64,000 nt of DNA from Candidatus Wolfebacteria bacterium GW2011_GWE2_44_13 (GCA_001000675.1 LCHW01000001.1:488875-552874); one strand, 5' to 3'. Shown: positions 56,236 through 62,175, numbered from the stretch's first letter. Notes: generated by a model from the letters alone, not told the origin. Numbers and translations: made by a program.

Positions 56236-56315
56236 GTTTATTTAAGTATACCATTTTTGAGATAATGTGGTCAGTCACCATTTATTCCACTTTCTAATTC
56301 CCCTTTCATCAACTC

Positions 56316-56382
56316 CTCAATCTTACCAAATTTTGACCTGTTATGTAACCAACACAAAACGAGGCCTGCGGGCCTCGTTTTT
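56316..56382 (-). promoter_or_regulatory. terminator-plus-promoter intergenic cassette, copy A
   Basis: Read on the minus strand: hairpin AAAACGAGGCCcgcaGGCCTCGTTTTgtgttgg, then TTACAT-17-TAAGAT. It serves the NYN-1 3' end and the MTase 5' end. Confidence 0.55.
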
Positions 56383-56482
56383 AGGTGAATTTGATGTGGG
56401 GGGGTGGATTCTTTAATGCAATACAATAGCAACTCTGAATTCTCGCCCACGTAAAGTCCGCCGGGGGCGGACCACGGGGCGA

Positions 56483-56593
56483 GCGAGACTAGGATAATCT
56501 GCTGTGGATAGCTTGCTTTTGCTTTCCATGGAAATAGCTTTAGCCACCTTAAGCATTACCCACCATTGACATTAACTGCTTGCTTGGTATACT
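56483..56593. repeat. conserved roughly 100-bp module downstream of the NYN gene, copy A
   Basis: About 92% identical to 61118-61216. It contains a plus-strand promoter TTGACA-16-TATACT at 56566-56593. Confidence 0.6.
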
Positions 56594-56599
56594 TTAAAT

Positions 56600-56657
56600 A
56601 TCACGACGAGGGCAGGTTCATAAGGGTTGGTCCTTATGTAATTGGCCCTCTTTTTTG
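56600..56657 (+). ncRNA. predicted short cis-antisense RNA overlapping the NYN-1 3' end
   Basis: Starts about 7 nt after the -10 TATACT. GAGGGC...GCCCTC hairpin followed by TTTTTTGT. It overlaps the last roughly 13 codons and the stop of the minus-strand NYN gene. Confidence 0.4.
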
Positions 56658-57163
56658 TACTCCAATCTATTCCGTAGATTATTCATGAAATCTATTTTAT
56701 CTACGGCAACGGAATTAAGCAGATTCGAATATGCCTCCTTATTAGGCACTAATAATTTATGCAGCTTTTTATTATTGTTTAGATACTCGACAAGACAATA
56801 GAAATCGCCATCCCCCGAAACTATTAACGCTTTCTCATAATTTATATATTCGATCATGGCATGCAAAACCATCTCGGCATCAGCGTTTCCCTTTACCTTG
56901 CCATTTGGCAACTCGAGCGTTGGCTTAAATATTAATATATATCCAAATTTTTGTAACGCCGTATAGAGCCTCTGGTTTGTTGGCACATACCCGATAAAAA
57001 TAAATGCCTTTGTTACTCCATATTTATCCTTTAAATAAACTCTAAAACGTTCAAAATCAAGCTTCCATCCTTCGTAAACTTTTTCACCCTGCTTATCATA
57101 AACGTCATTACCAACTCCAAGATTTAAATTTTGACTATCAATAAATGCGTAATTATTAGCCAT
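56618..57163 (-). CDS. NYN-domain (LabA-like, PIN-fold) nuclease, copy 1
   Basis: NYAFIDSQNL, GNADAEMVL and SGDGDF give the four conserved Asp of the NYN/PIN fold. Start is placed at the internal ATG because the upstream 44 codons translate the repeated intergenic cassette. Confidence 0.75.
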   Translation of the reverse strand: MANNYAFIDSQNLNLGVGNDVYDKQGEKVYEGWKLDFERFRVYLKDKYGVTKAFIFIGYVPTNQRLYTALQKFGYILIFKPTLELPNGKVKGNADAEMVLHAMIEYINYEKALIVSGDGDFYCLVEYLNNNKKLHKLLVPNKEAYSNLLNSVAVDKIDFMNNLRNRLEYKKEGQLHKDQPL

Positions 57164-57179
57164 ACTTTTATATATAAAT

Positions 57180-57243
57180 AATCTTACCAAATTTTGGCCT
57201 GTTATGTAACCAACACAAAACGAGGCCGTAGGGCCTCGATTTA
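57180..57243 (-). promoter_or_regulatory. terminator-plus-promoter cassette, copy B
   Basis: AAATCGAGGCCctacGGCCTCGTTTTgtg followed by TTACAT-17-TAAGAT directly upstream of NYN-1. Confidence 0.55.
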
Positions 57244-57333
57244 GGGTGAAGTTGATGGGGGGGGTGAGTTCTTTAATACAATCAAATAACGACATTAATG
57301 GGATCAGCCACTATTAATTGTGATCCCATTAAT

Positions 57334-58155
57334 CTACCGATTTGATCCATTAATTTTTGACCCTTTCAAAAAATTACGGATAATGGCGACGTCAGCCACA
57401 ATAATTACGCCCATCATAATCATTTGAGGAATTGGTGCAGGAAATCCTTTTTGGCTCAAGATAAACATCATGCAAACAATCGCTATCCCCATGGTGGCAA
57501 AAAATATCATCAGTGGAACAGCCAAAACATAGCCGAGGCTTTTTTGCTTCCAAAGTAGAATGGAAATTATTGTTGATGCTGGTAATAGCAGGGCTAAATC
57601 TAAAACTTGCACTGGGTTTACTAAAAGCCCAATATCACTAACTCCCTGTGGCAGGCTACCAGTAATAAGTGCTCGTAGAATATCGGCTAACCATAGTAGG
57701 AAAAACAATCCACTAACAGTCATCAAGAAAATACTTGCTGGACGATGACTGTGTCCGATTAAATTTTGCCTTATTTCTTCTTTATCAATCTGCATCATTC
57801 CGCCGATAAGAGAGTAAAAAGACAGGCCTAATATCACTATGTATATTAAAAATAGCGGTCCAAAATGTATAAAGAAAGCGTAAAGCGCATAACAATAGAC
57901 CATGTAGATAAGTATCCCCAACCAAACTAAAATGGCGCGCCAAGAACCTTTACGCATAAGATATAAACAGATCACCAGTAAGGGAAAGATTAAAAATACA
58001 TTGATTAAATCCTGCCCCATTGCTTGAGATGCCCAGCTGACAGTTTCTTTTGCGTACGTACTTTTAAAGAGAATACCGGCACCACTAACAAAAAACATTA
58101 GCACTCCCGCTAAAAATGAAAGTCTTATCCAAATTTTTGATATTTGCGTTTTCAT
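57334..58155 (-). CDS. polytopic membrane protein (about 8 TM), unknown function
   Basis: 273 aa, highly hydrophobic, no recognisable family. Confidence 0.6.
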   Translation of the reverse strand: MKTQISKIWIRLSFLAGVLMFFVSGAGILFKSTYAKETVSWASQAMGQDLINVFLIFPLLVICLYLMRKGSWRAILVWLGILIYMVYCYALYAFFIHFGPLFLIYIVILGLSFYSLIGGMMQIDKEEIRQNLIGHSHRPASIFLMTVSGLFFLLWLADILRALITGSLPQGVSDIGLLVNPVQVLDLALLLPASTIISILLWKQKSLGYVLAVPLMIFFATMGIAIVCMMFILSQKGFPAPIPQMIMMGVIIVADVAIIRNFLKGSKINGSNR

Positions 58156-58233
58156 AATTTTAATTTTCTTTATTAAAGATAGCCAAGAAATTACTGATTA
58201 ATAGTACTTCTCATAGAACATTAGATAGACTCT

Positions 58234-60855: not shown

Positions 60856-60985
60856 GACATAATTATATCAAAAAAAATACATAAGACAATTATGATAAGC
60901 ATAGGGCTAAAGGCATTAAAACATTAAAGTTAATGGGGGTAGCCACTATTAATTCATCGATTCATACCCCACTCATTAATCCCTA

Positions 60986-61048
60986 AATCTTACCAAATTT
61001 TTACCTACTATGTAACCAACACAAAACGAGGCCGTGGGGCCTCGTTTT
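60986..61048 (-). promoter_or_regulatory. terminator-plus-promoter cassette, copy D
   Basis: AAAACGAGGCCccacGGCCTCGTTTTgtgttgg followed by TTACAT-17-TAAGAT, upstream of 60205..60855. Confidence 0.55.
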
Positions 61049-61084
61049 GGGTGGATTCTTTAATGCAGCAAAATAACAACTCTG

Positions 61085-61110
61085 GATTCCCGTTTTCACG
61101 GGAATGACAG
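61085..61110. repeat. REP-like hairpin (GGATTCCCGttttcaCGGGAATGACA)
   Basis: Single arm of the dispersed family. Confidence 0.4.
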
Positions 61111-61117
61111 ACTTTTC

Positions 61118-61216
61118 TAATCTGCTGTGAATAGCTTGCTTTTGCTTTCTATGGGAATAGCTTTAGTCCCCTTAATCATTACCCACCATTGACATTAACT
61201 ACTTGCTTGCTATACT
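61118..61216. repeat. conserved roughly 100-bp module downstream of the NYN gene, copy B
   Basis: About 92% identical to copy A. It contains a plus-strand TTGACA-16-TATACT at 61189-61216. Confidence 0.6.
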
Positions 61217-61222
61217 TTATGT

Positions 61223-61275
61223 ACTAAACGTGAAGGGCATCCTATATGGGTGCCCTTCTTCGTTATTCCATCCTA
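61223..61275 (+). ncRNA. predicted short cis-antisense RNA at the NYN-2 3' end
   Basis: GAAGGGCAtcctatatggGTGCCCTTC hairpin followed by a U-rich TTCGTTATT. It overlaps the stop codon region of NYN-2. Confidence 0.35.
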
Positions 61276-61886
61276 AGGATATTTCTAAGATACTCAAAAT
61301 CTCTCAAATTACTTCCTGCGAATTGTCTTAATTCTTTTGCGGTTCTATCGCTCCTGCTTAATACAATAACATCTTTATTTTCTCCTCTAAGATATTTCAA
61401 TACTGGCAAGAAATCTCCGTCCCCAGAAAGCACAACCGCCCTCTCGAAATTATTCTTTTCTTTCATTAAATGGAACGCCATATCAACATCACAATTCGCC
61501 TTTCGTTTTGTCGATCCATCATCTTGATCATATAACTTTACTGGTTTTAAAAACAATACATATCCAAAGGACTCAAGCCTTAAATAAAATCTAACCCGTT
61601 GAAGATGTCTCCCAATAAGCAGAATATCCGCTTCATTCAAAGTCTTTTCTTCATTTTTTAAAATATCCAATAAATGCTCTTCTAGTCGCTTTATTGGGAC
61701 TGTTTCATCTTTTTGATAGTCATATTTAAAATTATGGATTTCAACACCACCGAAGTACAGAATTCTTTCGGTCTGATATTTATCACCTAAATATGTAAAA
61801 AGCTTTTTATAATCAATTTTCCACCCCAAACTTTTCTCTCCTCCATAAAATAGATTGGATGCATCAATAAATGCAAATGTTTTCAT
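61263..61886 (-). CDS. NYN-domain (LabA-like, PIN-fold) nuclease, copy 2
   Basis: MKTFAFIDASNL, ANCDVDMAF and SGDGDFLPVL are the NYN catalytic Asp set. Confidence 0.75.
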   Translation of the reverse strand: MKTFAFIDASNLFYGGEKSLGWKIDYKKLFTYLGDKYQTERILYFGGVEIHNFKYDYQKDETVPIKRLEEHLLDILKNEEKTLNEADILLIGRHLQRVRFYLRLESFGYVLFLKPVKLYDQDDGSTKRKANCDVDMAFHLMKEKNNFERAVVLSGDGDFLPVLKYLRGENKDVIVLSRSDRTAKELRQFAGSNLRDFEYLRNILRME

Positions 61887-62093
61887 ATCAGTATTTTATC
61901 ATATTACGAATATATAATAAAAATATGAAGCTCCCACGGGCTTATGCTCGGGTTTTTGTTAGAAGCATAAACTAAAACCGCCCTTGCCTTGCGGCAGTGG
62001 CGGTGGTTTTAATATTACTATACTAATCTGAAATGTAATAATTATCAACGGTGCTAATAGGATTAATCACCGTTTCCCCTTCATTAATCCCTC

Positions 62094-62152
62094 AATCTTA
62101 CCAAATTTTGACCTATTATATAACTAATAAAAAAGCCCCCGTTGCCGGGGGC
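62094..62152 (-). promoter_or_regulatory. terminator-plus-promoter cassette, copy E (different hairpin, same promoter)
   Basis: AAGCCCCCGGcaaCGGGGGCTTTTTT followed by TTATAT-17-TAAGAT. It sits upstream of the long structured 5' leader of NYN-2. Confidence 0.5.
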
Positions 62153-62175
62153 TTGTCTTCTTTGAGGTCGGAGTA

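Follow-up and report, generated by a model that had tools for sequence, protein, structure and literature searches.

T4-type phages carry PeSLs (promoter-early stem-loops), elements of about 100 bp in which a sigma-70-like promoter is combined with a terminator stem-loop; they stand before ORFans and are concentrated in the hyperplastic parts of the genome (Arbiol et al. 2010, PMC2839356; Comeau et al. 2014, PMC4122927). Studies have shown that PeSLs border the indels between sister phages, and in the model proposed for them recombination between flanking PeSLs leaves a chimeric PeSL and a mini-circle able to reinsert at any PeSL; the promoter and terminator activity and the mini-circles were demonstrated experimentally (PMC2839356; PMC4122927). 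In this study, we analysed a stretch of 64,000 nucleotides (hereafter the window) from Candidatus Wolfebacteria bacterium GW2011_GWE2_44_13 (LCHW01000001.1:488875-552874), a member of the candidate phyla radiation (CPR, or Patescibacteria), in which a first-pass annotation had noticed five intergenic copies of a hairpin followed by a putative promoter, here called units A to E. We believe that these units are probably PeSL-like composite terminator/promoter modules which also serve as recombination homology in a flexible CPR island, because they form a repeat family with a telling pattern of conservation, stand before unrelated genes in two haplotypes and two species, include a chimeric copy, and lie at breakpoints.

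The units resemble PeSLs in several respects. Each is a composite of promoter and stem-loop of about 100 bp, recognised here by sequence alone in 13 copies; they are intergenic repeats of a variable region and precede unrelated, mostly uncharacterised genes; indels and replacements are bordered by the motif and chimeric motifs occur, as seen in one haplotype pair; and what is proposed to be excised is a gene with a motif on either side. Unlike PeSLs, which reside in T4-type phages and use host sigma-70 as early promoters, the units are chromosomal, in a CPR bacterium, and have no phage genes around them, their sequence is unrelated, their hairpin is always upstream of the -35 element, their promoter is below consensus, and their activity is a prediction. 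The unit would thus work like a PeSL yet stand outside the phage family.

Other known systems share part of this description. Putative mobile promoters (Matus-Garcia, Nijveen & van Passel 2012, PMC3575422) are at least 80% identical over at least 50 nt upstream of non-paralogous genes, both inside a single genome and across taxa, and belong to no known mobile element, which also holds for the units; however, they are defined operationally and genome-wide, whereas the units are clustered in one island, include a terminator, and show direct recombination footprints. Integrons are likewise same-orientation gene arrays split by a repeated hairpin element, with variable cargo including defence-type genes. 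In contrast, the units have no intI, attC core or extrahelical bases, each has its own promoter where integron cassettes are mostly promoterless, and their exchange is apparently homologous rather than site-specific. Correia elements, ERIC and REPIN (cited in PMC3575422) are also short intergenic repeats that can supply promoters or terminators, but they have terminal inverted repeats, genome-wide dispersal in both orientations and transposase dependence, none of which the units show. In replacement flexible genomic islands, as outlined by Lopez-Perez et al. (2014, PMC4033161), the same locus holds different gene sets that are exchanged homologously; in that outline the homology lies in flanking core genes, whereas here one crossover point is an internal regulatory repeat of about 95 bp. 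A literature search on CPR with islands, repeats, promoters or NYN found nothing relevant.

The repeat family and its anatomy

The island region (55.8-62.6 kb) was read along the minus strand, where all island genes are encoded. A repeat search of the window returned an 85-nt family with four copies and a 62-nt family with five, at the places where the first-pass annotation had put its cassette. A 48-nt degenerate pattern had three exact matches against 0.00 expected, and the invariant 15-mer AATCTTACCAAATTT occurred exactly five times, always within the units (0.39 expected at up to two mismatches). A profile hidden Markov model (HMM) was built from 13 copies of two haplotypes and two species; in the window it recovered five units of about 95 nt, all on the minus strand (E 7.5e-19 to 2.1e-27; Table 1), and one weak extra match, a promoter-only relative, for which a pattern search gave five matches against 0.03 expected. 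The repeat is real and far above chance, and the earlier claim of five minus-strand copies was borne out. They lie within 6 kb of the island, and the remaining 53 kb of the window hold only the promoter-only relative. The size of 65-80 bp first given was an underestimate: the unit reaches further 5', through ATYCACCC, to about 95 nt, and copies A, B and D have a 44-nt 5' extension besides (56402-56445, 57262-57305 and 61049-61092). By BLAST, A and D are 88% identical over 78 nt, C and D 89% over 85 nt, and A and B 88% over 108 nt.

Alignments of the five window copies and of all 13 copies were used to describe the unit. From 5' to 3' it consists of ATYCACCC; AAAACGAGGCC, a loop of 4-5 nt and GGCCTCGTTTT; GTGTTG; GTTACATAA; about 9 variable nt; AATTTGGTAAGATT; and, in most copies, GAGGGATTAATGAGTGGGG. 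Little or no variation is seen among the 13 copies in the hairpin stems, GGTTACATAA and ATTTGGTAAGATT, and the hairpin loop and promoter spacer are variable. In E-type copies an unrelated hairpin (AAGCCCCCG-gcaa-CGGGGGCTT) takes the position of the usual one. Variable loops and spacers with constant stems, -35 and -10 would fit a terminator plus promoter, and not a sequence-specific recombination site.

The order of hairpin and promoter described in the first-pass annotation held, with strong T-run hairpins of -11 to -23 kcal/mol (z -3.1 to -6.6) and conservation of stems, -35 and -10 throughout. The hairpins of A, B, D and E were flagged as terminator-like by the scan (four of five), that of copy C being weakened, and the T-run tail is TTTTGTGTT, or TTTTTTATT in copy E. 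With a G+C-rich stem-loop and a U-run, the hairpins have the sequence features of intrinsic terminators and are predicted to act as such. For the promoter, the previous reading TTACAT-16/17-TAAGAT was right in its TAAGAT, but its -35 agrees with TTGACA at just two of six positions. GTTACA-18 nt-TGGTAAGAT, with a spacer of 17 nt in copy C, fits the consensus better: GTTACA matches the -35 consensus TTGACA at four of six positions, and TAAGAT matches the -10 consensus at four of six and is preceded by TGG, which makes an extended -10. This reading is supported because similar promoters occur elsewhere. The ATG-proximal boxes of the same genome are TGTGGTATAAT, TGTGGTATACT and TGGTATACT, of which the first and last resemble TGGTAAGAT; the NYN gene of a related Wolfebacteria genome is preceded by TGATAAGAT, again resembling TGGTAAGAT; and the DedA/VTT-gene promoter in the window, GTTACATAA-N12-TGCTACTAT, has the same -35 element and a geometry identical to that of the units.

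The conserved leader claimed earlier is found in most copies and is partly conserved, and copy B lacks it. The leaders of A, C and D showed no significant RNA structure against shuffles (z +0.86, +0.53 and -0.40), and Rfam gave no match at gathering score in the window, its sub-threshold matches in the island being at chance level; a structured leader, riboswitch or attenuator was therefore rejected. The ATG of the leader is 10 nt past the -10 box. Reading GAGGGATTAATG as a Shine-Dalgarno sequence with a mini-open reading frame (ORF) was also rejected, as the ORFs have 4-14 codons (43 in one haplotype-2 copy) and are conserved only as M-S/K-G, which makes a leader peptide unconvincing. If transcription started 6-8 nt past the -10 box, GAGGG would fall at the extreme 5' end of the RNA.

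Unrelated cargo and recombination footprints

The window matches a scaffold from Rifle groundwater in ENA (ANAN16-1...scaffold_7, 608 kb) at 100% identity, and the genes for the NYN-2 and membrane-216 proteins are found on contigs from Rifle aquifer groundwater. The comparison set consisted of a second haplotype (contigs L001/L002, including GCA_003508115.1) and of Candidatus Wolfebacteria RIFOXYB1_FULL_54_12 (contigs L019/L020; hereafter the RIFOXYB1 genome). The histidyl-tRNA synthetase (HisRS) encoded beside the island is 77% identical to that of the RIFOXYB1 genome in protein and 72% in DNA. The island, which in the window lies at 53.5-62.6 kb between the hisS/sortase and SOUL/DedA genes, has the same chromosomal neighbourhood in both species and is G+C-poor relative to its flanks in both genomes. 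We regard it as a variable island occupying a hot spot that follows hisS and a tRNA gene with an intron.

The search of relatives proposed in the first-pass annotation yielded copies in both the second haplotype and the RIFOXYB1 genome. These copies are 85-96% identical to the window units, lie at the same locus, and precede unrelated genes. Haplotype 2 has four, two upstream of NYN-2, one 3' of NYN-2 before a DHQS-like gene, and one before a MazG-like gene; the RIFOXYB1 island has at least four and a partial one, standing before an NAD synthase gene, a 194-aa ORF, a 263-aa ORF and one further gene. The window units precede a methyltransferase/restriction endonuclease (MTase/REase) pair, NYN-1, two membrane proteins and NYN-2. 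These genes are mostly unrelated, their proteins being unrelated or at most 29% identical; the membrane genes behind D and C are distant paralogues (24%). Between species, unit identity is 85-92% vs 72% for hisS DNA and 78-81% for NYN-2 DNA. The upstream extension of unit C, with its extra hairpin, recurs in the first RIFOXYB1 unit (85.5% over 138 nt), and ATGACGTACATATAAAA, found before the haplotype-2 MazG unit, recurs in the fourth; 5' extensions are thus common to different cargo across species.

In public genome contigs the exact promoter pattern matched one Wolfebacteria contig, and in metagenome contigs it matched the same contig, a haplotype-2 contig and one AT-rich chance match; such exact-pattern scans would miss diverged copies. 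The unit was absent from the other Patescibacteria loci fetched via NYN homologues. Neither the promoter pattern nor the hairpin pattern had a match among IMG/VR viral contigs and phage genes are lacking nearby, so a phage origin was rejected.

The alignment of the window with haplotype 2 (L002) is broken at units E and D (Table 1). The first two BLAST blocks overlap by 53 nt in the window, at unit E. In a three-way alignment, the 5' side of unit E is E1-like (hairpin, AGTTATATA) and its 3' side is E2-like (AAGGGGAAACGG...), where E1 and E2 are separate units 206 bp apart in haplotype 2; these 206 bp are missing in the window, and the crossover falls inside a 38-nt identical stretch. Unit E reads as the chimeric repeat expected from recombination between two direct repeats, and this recombinant origin accounts for the earlier observation that copy E keeps the promoter and has a different hairpin. 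The haplotype-specific cargo is bounded on the left by the 3' end of unit D (60967), and its right breakpoint (53562) abuts copy 2 of another repeat, the F element. In L001/L002 the replacement of 5.4 kb comprises the DHQS-like gene, a methyltransferase, a 143-aa ORF, MazG and an SLFN-helicase/S24 gene.

Each NYN gene is bordered by a unit on either side. On their 3' side both also have a shared block of about 300 nt, in which a repeat called D3, a variable small palindrome and the 44-nt extension are joined to the unit; this block is 88-92% identical, whereas the NYN proteins are 29% identical; therefore, the non-coding frame is shared and the gene inside differs. Look-ups via the NYN-1 and 113-aa proteins revealed no further arrangement, except an 85-nt indel upstream of NYN-2.

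Table 1. Units and other features of the locus; positions refer to the window unless a contig is named.
Feature	Position	Strand	Details
Unit A	56299..56392	-	hairpin 56356-56381; -35 GTTACA 56344-56349; TGG-TAAGAT 56320-56328; leader with ATG 56307-56309; E 1.5e-25; -18.5 kcal/mol; between NYN-1 and the D12 MTase/AlwI REase pair
Unit B	57165..57253	-	hairpin 57217-57242; promoter 57181-57210; no leader; NYN-1 ATG (57163) 17 nt past -10 box; E 3e-22; -14.7 kcal/mol
Unit C	59742..59832	-	weakened hairpin 59798-59824; spacer 1 nt shorter; extra upstream hairpin 59827-59858; E 2.3e-23; -11.1 kcal/mol; precedes membrane-235/hydrolase/membrane-273 genes
Unit D	60965..61057	-	hairpin 61022-61049; promoter 60987-61016, then leader; E 2.1e-27; -23.2 kcal/mol
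Unit E	62075..62167	-	non-homologous hairpin 62133-62154; promoter 62095-62124; E 7.5e-19; -19.4 kcal/mol
Promoter-only relative	51420..51466	-	GTTACATAA-N12-TGCTACTAT; narrower extent 51431-51460; upstream of DedA/VTT-domain gene, outside the variable segment
Haplotype-specific cargo	53563..60966	-	membrane-216, membrane-235, alpha/beta hydrolase, membrane-273, NYN-1, D12 MTase, AlwI REase
BLAST block	63614-62082		L002 8068-9599; 97% identity
BLAST block	62134-60967		L002 9753-10915; 98% identity
Segment without homology (BLAST)	60966-53563		7.4 kb; in L002 5.4 kb of unrelated genes
Return of homology (BLAST)	from 53562 onward		to L002, 81%, then 96% from 53133
NYN-1 (181 aa)	56618..57163	-	flanked by units B and A
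NYN-2 (207 aa)	61263..61886	-	flanked by units E and D
D3 block 3' of NYN-1	56486..56596	-	plus-strand promoter 56566-56593, convergent with NYN-1
D3 block 3' of NYN-2	61109..61219	-	plus-strand promoter 61189-61216
Bidirectional hairpin	61232-61258		just outside the D3 block of NYN-2
Convergent mini-gene	61189-61262; 56566-56625	+	just 3' of NYN; also in L019/L020, L023, L024, L026, L028, L031, L034
F element copy 1	62551..62595	-	upstream of 113-aa gene
F element copy 2	53505..53549	-	upstream of 99-aa gene
Membrane-216 gene-proximal promoter	60862..60889	-	TTGTCT-16-TGATATAAT; ends 6 nt before ATG
NYN-2 gene-proximal box	61893-61901	-	TGATAAAAT
MTase gene-proximal box	ends at 56245	-	TGGTATACT
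Genes with ATG-proximal extended -10	14143-15324; 25304-25945; 34773-36581; 45314-45691; 55327-56235; 60205-60855; 61263-61886		
P palindrome	60930..60952	-	TTAATGG-N-CCATTAA type; other copies 56262-56286, 57295-57332, 62611-62634
Small palindromic elements	61945-62030; 56446-56485; 61093-61108; 51500-51570; L003 6370-6560		

NYN genes and other elements of the island

The NYN-1 and NYN-2 proteins share 29% identity, and the D3 blocks behind their genes are 92% identical. Units B and A have a common segment (...ATCAAMTTCACC...) that is lacking in C, D and E, and in haplotype 2 no other adjacent units are as alike as the two that flank NYN-2 (97.4% identity over 77 nt). The NYN-2 family is widespread in Patescibacteria, with 2962 homologues at E<=1e-20, and the homologues in other Patescibacteria lie in unrelated neighbourhoods. 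Direct repeats of local DNA of at least 36 bits were found around NYN at six of ten distinct loci, compared with 6 of 86 control ORFs. A 125-nt flanking repeat (L026 6795-6920 vs 7830-7960) includes the 5' end of an M23 peptidase gene, a perfect 31-nt one (L034 2966-2996 vs 3748-3778) overlaps the 3' end of a DAP-epimerase gene, and L023 and L024 also have flanking direct repeats. The unrelated neighbourhoods and frequent flanking direct repeats suggest that the NYN module itself is mobile.

A convergent mini-gene on the opposite strand was observed 3' of the NYN-2-family gene in all eight loci examined, which come from different Patescibacteria. It is laid out as a -35 TTGACN, a variable spacer of 16-17 nt, an extended -10 TGYTAnnnT, TACTAAACGTG, a hairpin and a T-run. 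TACTAAACGTG is nearly invariant, with a single substitution at one of the eight loci; seven of the eight have the same or almost the same hairpin loop, and compensatory changes occur at 4 of 11 stem pairs. NYN-1, at 29% identity, and the 197-aa NYN gene of the RIFOXYB1 genome have the same layout with different sequences. The mini-gene predicts an RNA of about 48 nt that would overlap the NYN 3' end, and the two could be an antisense or toxin-antitoxin-like pair; no Rfam match was found for this RNA.

The F element is a composite in which a hairpin, AAAATAGCCCATATGGGCTATTTT, lies between a TTGACA -35 and a TATTTT -10. Its two copies are 97.8% identical over 45 nt and bracket the whole island, and the 113-aa and 99-aa proteins encoded behind them have no significant similarity and are not demonstrably paralogous. 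The P palindrome, ATTAATGG(GG)TCAGGYACCATTAAT, has arms of 8-9 bp and a centre of 7-9 bp; it is island-specific, about 7-fold enriched in the island, and sits after stop codons and just 3' of unit promoters. Half-sites are found at 60170-60181 and about 53610, and many sites in L019/L020 and at L002 16200-16290. One P copy of the RIFOXYB1 genome is interrupted by a palindrome of 27 nt that has a duplicated GGTCAGGTA on its flanks (9 bp; L020 4455-4520). The P-motif core had 10 matches in IMG/VR, which a rough estimate, made without inspection of the matches, judged consistent with chance. The P palindrome could be an operator or a recombination site. Small G+C-rich palindromic elements, such as GTCATTCCCGnnnnnCGGGAATCCAG and CCCCGTGGTCCGCC..GGCGGAC, are inserted in intergenic DNA, and this haplotype has one 85-nt block of this kind upstream of NYN-2 that haplotype L052 lacks.

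About 1 kb past window position 64000, a group I intron (Rfam RF00028, 61.8 bits) interrupts the anticodon loop of a tRNA gene (L003 6650-6945); ARAGORN makes no call of this interrupted tRNA. In the RIFOXYB1 genome the corresponding tRNA site is at L020 ~7660-7700, where the tRNA 3' end adjoins the island; the variable island lies downstream of this tRNA in both species. About 650 nt of non-coding DNA around it are 85-98% identical between the species, vs 72% for hisS DNA. The RIFOXYB1 island contains a 399-aa ORF (L020 5718-6917, minus strand) without a Pfam match; this ORF weakly resembles IS481/IS3 transposases (E 7e-6 and 3e-5). Some 140 nt 3' of it resemble the region upstream of window unit C (59833-59880), and an ORF-free stretch of 360 nt in the window (59846-60204) may be the remnant of something like this ORF region. 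A relationship between this ORF and the 399-aa ORF of L026 was considered and discarded, the two being unrelated.

A Candidatus Harrisonbacteria contig (JACROC010000007.1; L023 2900-11500) has an array of small ORFs with no known domains and an unrelated repeated unit in five intergenic regions, composed of a terminator tail, TTGACA-17-TAATAT and a 5' untranslated region with AAGGAGG; a second repeat family on this contig has four copies. Because this contig has its own unrelated five-fold unit, we take it as a hint that repeated terminator/promoter units are common in these genomes.

Weighing the readings and what the units may mean

If the units are PeSL-like modules, the hairpin would end transcription of the upstream gene, and the sigma-70-type extended -10 promoter with its short leader would start that of the next. 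As all modules share near-identical, equally oriented sequence over about 65-100 bp, the units would act as portable homology. A crossover between two units would delete the DNA between them, presumably excised as a circle, and a crossover of a resident with an incoming unit would insert or replace cargo; a transferred gene would arrive insulated from read-through and supplied with a promoter. This would be the same mechanism as that proposed for the PeSL cassettes of T4-like phages. We infer that circular intermediates and transfer between species may occur.

Several observations speak against this reading. Of the 12 positions of the consensus hexamers the promoter agrees with 8, and the consensus promoter scan did not list it, so we consider it plausible rather than strong, and the terminator and promoter activities of the units are predictions. 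Three of the five genes behind units (MTase behind A, membrane-216 behind D and NYN-2 behind E) have an ATG-proximal promoter of their own, where the promoter of the unit may be redundant or yield only short transcripts. A single chimeric copy and a single breakpoint could be a coincidence of general recombination at any repeat. The comparison covers two haplotypes and one related species, with one haplotype pair for breakpoints, and the exact-pattern public scans matched these genomes only.

The gene-proximal promoters bear on the claim that each copy terminates one gene and drives the next. An extended -10 (TGnTAnnnT) ends 6-9 nt before the ATG at 7 of the 55 window genes, which would imply leaderless or near-leaderless mRNAs in this organism; at membrane-216, TTGTCT-16-TATAAT was listed by the promoter scan at 60889-60862. 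Between unit E and NYN-2, this haplotype has an extra terminator-like, G+C-rich hairpin block with a T-run, which we take as a polymorphic small insertion because it is absent from haplotype L052. Behind B the NYN-1 ATG comes after 17 nt, and the membrane-235 ATG is about 60 nt past unit C; therefore, the unit promoter is the sole visible one for some cargo and a second, upstream one for other cargo. Driving of the next gene is thus partly supported, and doubtful for MTase, membrane-216 and NYN-2. The idea that the units coordinate expression of the island genes gained no support, as nothing shows coordination. The suspicion that the N-terminal extension of NYN-1 is a gene-caller artefact proved sound: the protein has 225 aa or 181 aa depending on the assembly, and in the shorter form the NYN domain begins near residue 8.

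The same repeats might be purely regulatory, the shared promoter/operator of a small regulon, spread by segmental duplication and kept by selection or gene conversion, with no part in shuffling. We think this unlikely. Although -35 and -10 are conserved, a related promoter serves a gene outside the island, P palindromes lie just 3' of several unit promoters as an operator would, and the 24% identity of the membrane genes behind D and C fits duplication, the genes downstream are mostly unrelated, the NYN proteins are 29% identical between non-coding flanks of 88-92%, and the same unit stands before different genes in another haplotype and species. The chimeric unit E and the breakpoint at D show that units join in rearrangements, and no regulator gene was identified in the island. 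The position of both NYN genes between two units bears on a further explanation, that the extra copies are by-products of NYN insertion: selfish modules would duplicate a target of 30-125 bp, or integrate in Campbell style, and E/D and B/A would each stem from one unit. The ATCAAMTTCACC segment confined to A and B, the 97.4% identity over 77 nt around NYN-2 in haplotype 2, the unrelated neighbourhoods of NYN-2 homologues and the flanking repeats at 6/10 NYN loci vs 6/86 control ORFs agree with it. However, 4 of the 10 loci have no flanking repeat, that of L023 is one member of a multi-copy intergenic family (a confounder), and unit C, the DHQS-like and MazG units and the RIFOXYB1 units are not beside NYN, where the NYN-2 homologue of the RIFOXYB1 genome is not unit-flanked either. 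Look-ups via the NYN-1 and 113-aa proteins found no empty site, and we know of no mechanism by which a PIN-like nuclease makes long target duplications. We therefore hold insertion to be quite improbable as a separate cause, and it partly merges with the PeSL-like reading, since a gene between two units is an inserted cassette in the PeSL model.

It is very improbable, in our judgement, that a dedicated recombination or transposition system acts on the units, for instance as integron attC-like sites, ends of HUH/Y1 elements (repetitive extragenic palindromes (REP) or IS200/IS605-like), or miniature inverted-repeat transposable elements (MITE). Their hairpin is perfect, without extrahelical bases, and replaceable by an unrelated one; there is no R''/R' core (no GTTRRRY), no terminal inverted repeats or target duplications, the edges are fuzzy and variable, and dispersed copies are absent from the window. 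Such a system would still agree with same-orientation hairpin repeats between single genes or small groups near a tRNA gene, a TTAC 7 nt 3' of the hairpin, the weak transposase similarity (E ~1e-5) of the RIFOXYB1 ORF, and the P palindrome split by a 27-nt palindrome with a 9-bp duplication. No integrase, transposase, Y1 or HUH protein was found among 30 window ORFs by Pfam scan or in the Pfam lists of island-flanking genes. An attC site was rejected since all 11 bp of the stem pair perfectly, GTTGGTT beside it does not conform to GTTRRRY, and no integrase occurs in the tested ORFs; MITE and REP were rejected since, in the 64-kb window, the internal hairpin is the sole inverted repeat and copies share one orientation and one island and have variable extents. 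Of the original suggestion of a mobile or copy-pasted unit, portability before unrelated genes and spread by homologous recombination stand, and a transposon-like nature does not, given the missing inverted repeats, target duplications, transposase and integrase and the restriction to one island and one orientation.

Returning to the PeSL-like reading, we speculate further, as something rather unlikely, that CPR chromosomes may host a cellular counterpart of PeSLs: an integrase-independent hot spot in which modules of about 95 bp, possibly together with the island-specific TTAATGG..CCATTAA palindromes, would be universal adaptors. Co-resident species would exchange defence and accessory genes in the form of excised circles, every gene coming in insulated and ready for expression, and the widespread NYN gene with its convergent RNA would be a selfish passenger on these adaptors.

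The promoters, terminators and gene acquisition of CPR bacteria, which are uncultivated and have tiny genomes, are almost unknown. The locus offers a concrete, repeatedly used promoter/terminator pair, albeit a predicted one, for testing or expression work. Short regulatory repeats appear here, at base-pair resolution, as crossover points in the turnover of a defence-type island with a restriction-modification system, NYN, MazG and an SLFN-like helicase. If this is general, the idea of PeSLs as mobile regulatory cassettes would extend from T4-like phages to cellular chromosomes, and it would explain how foreign genes can arrive already wired for expression.

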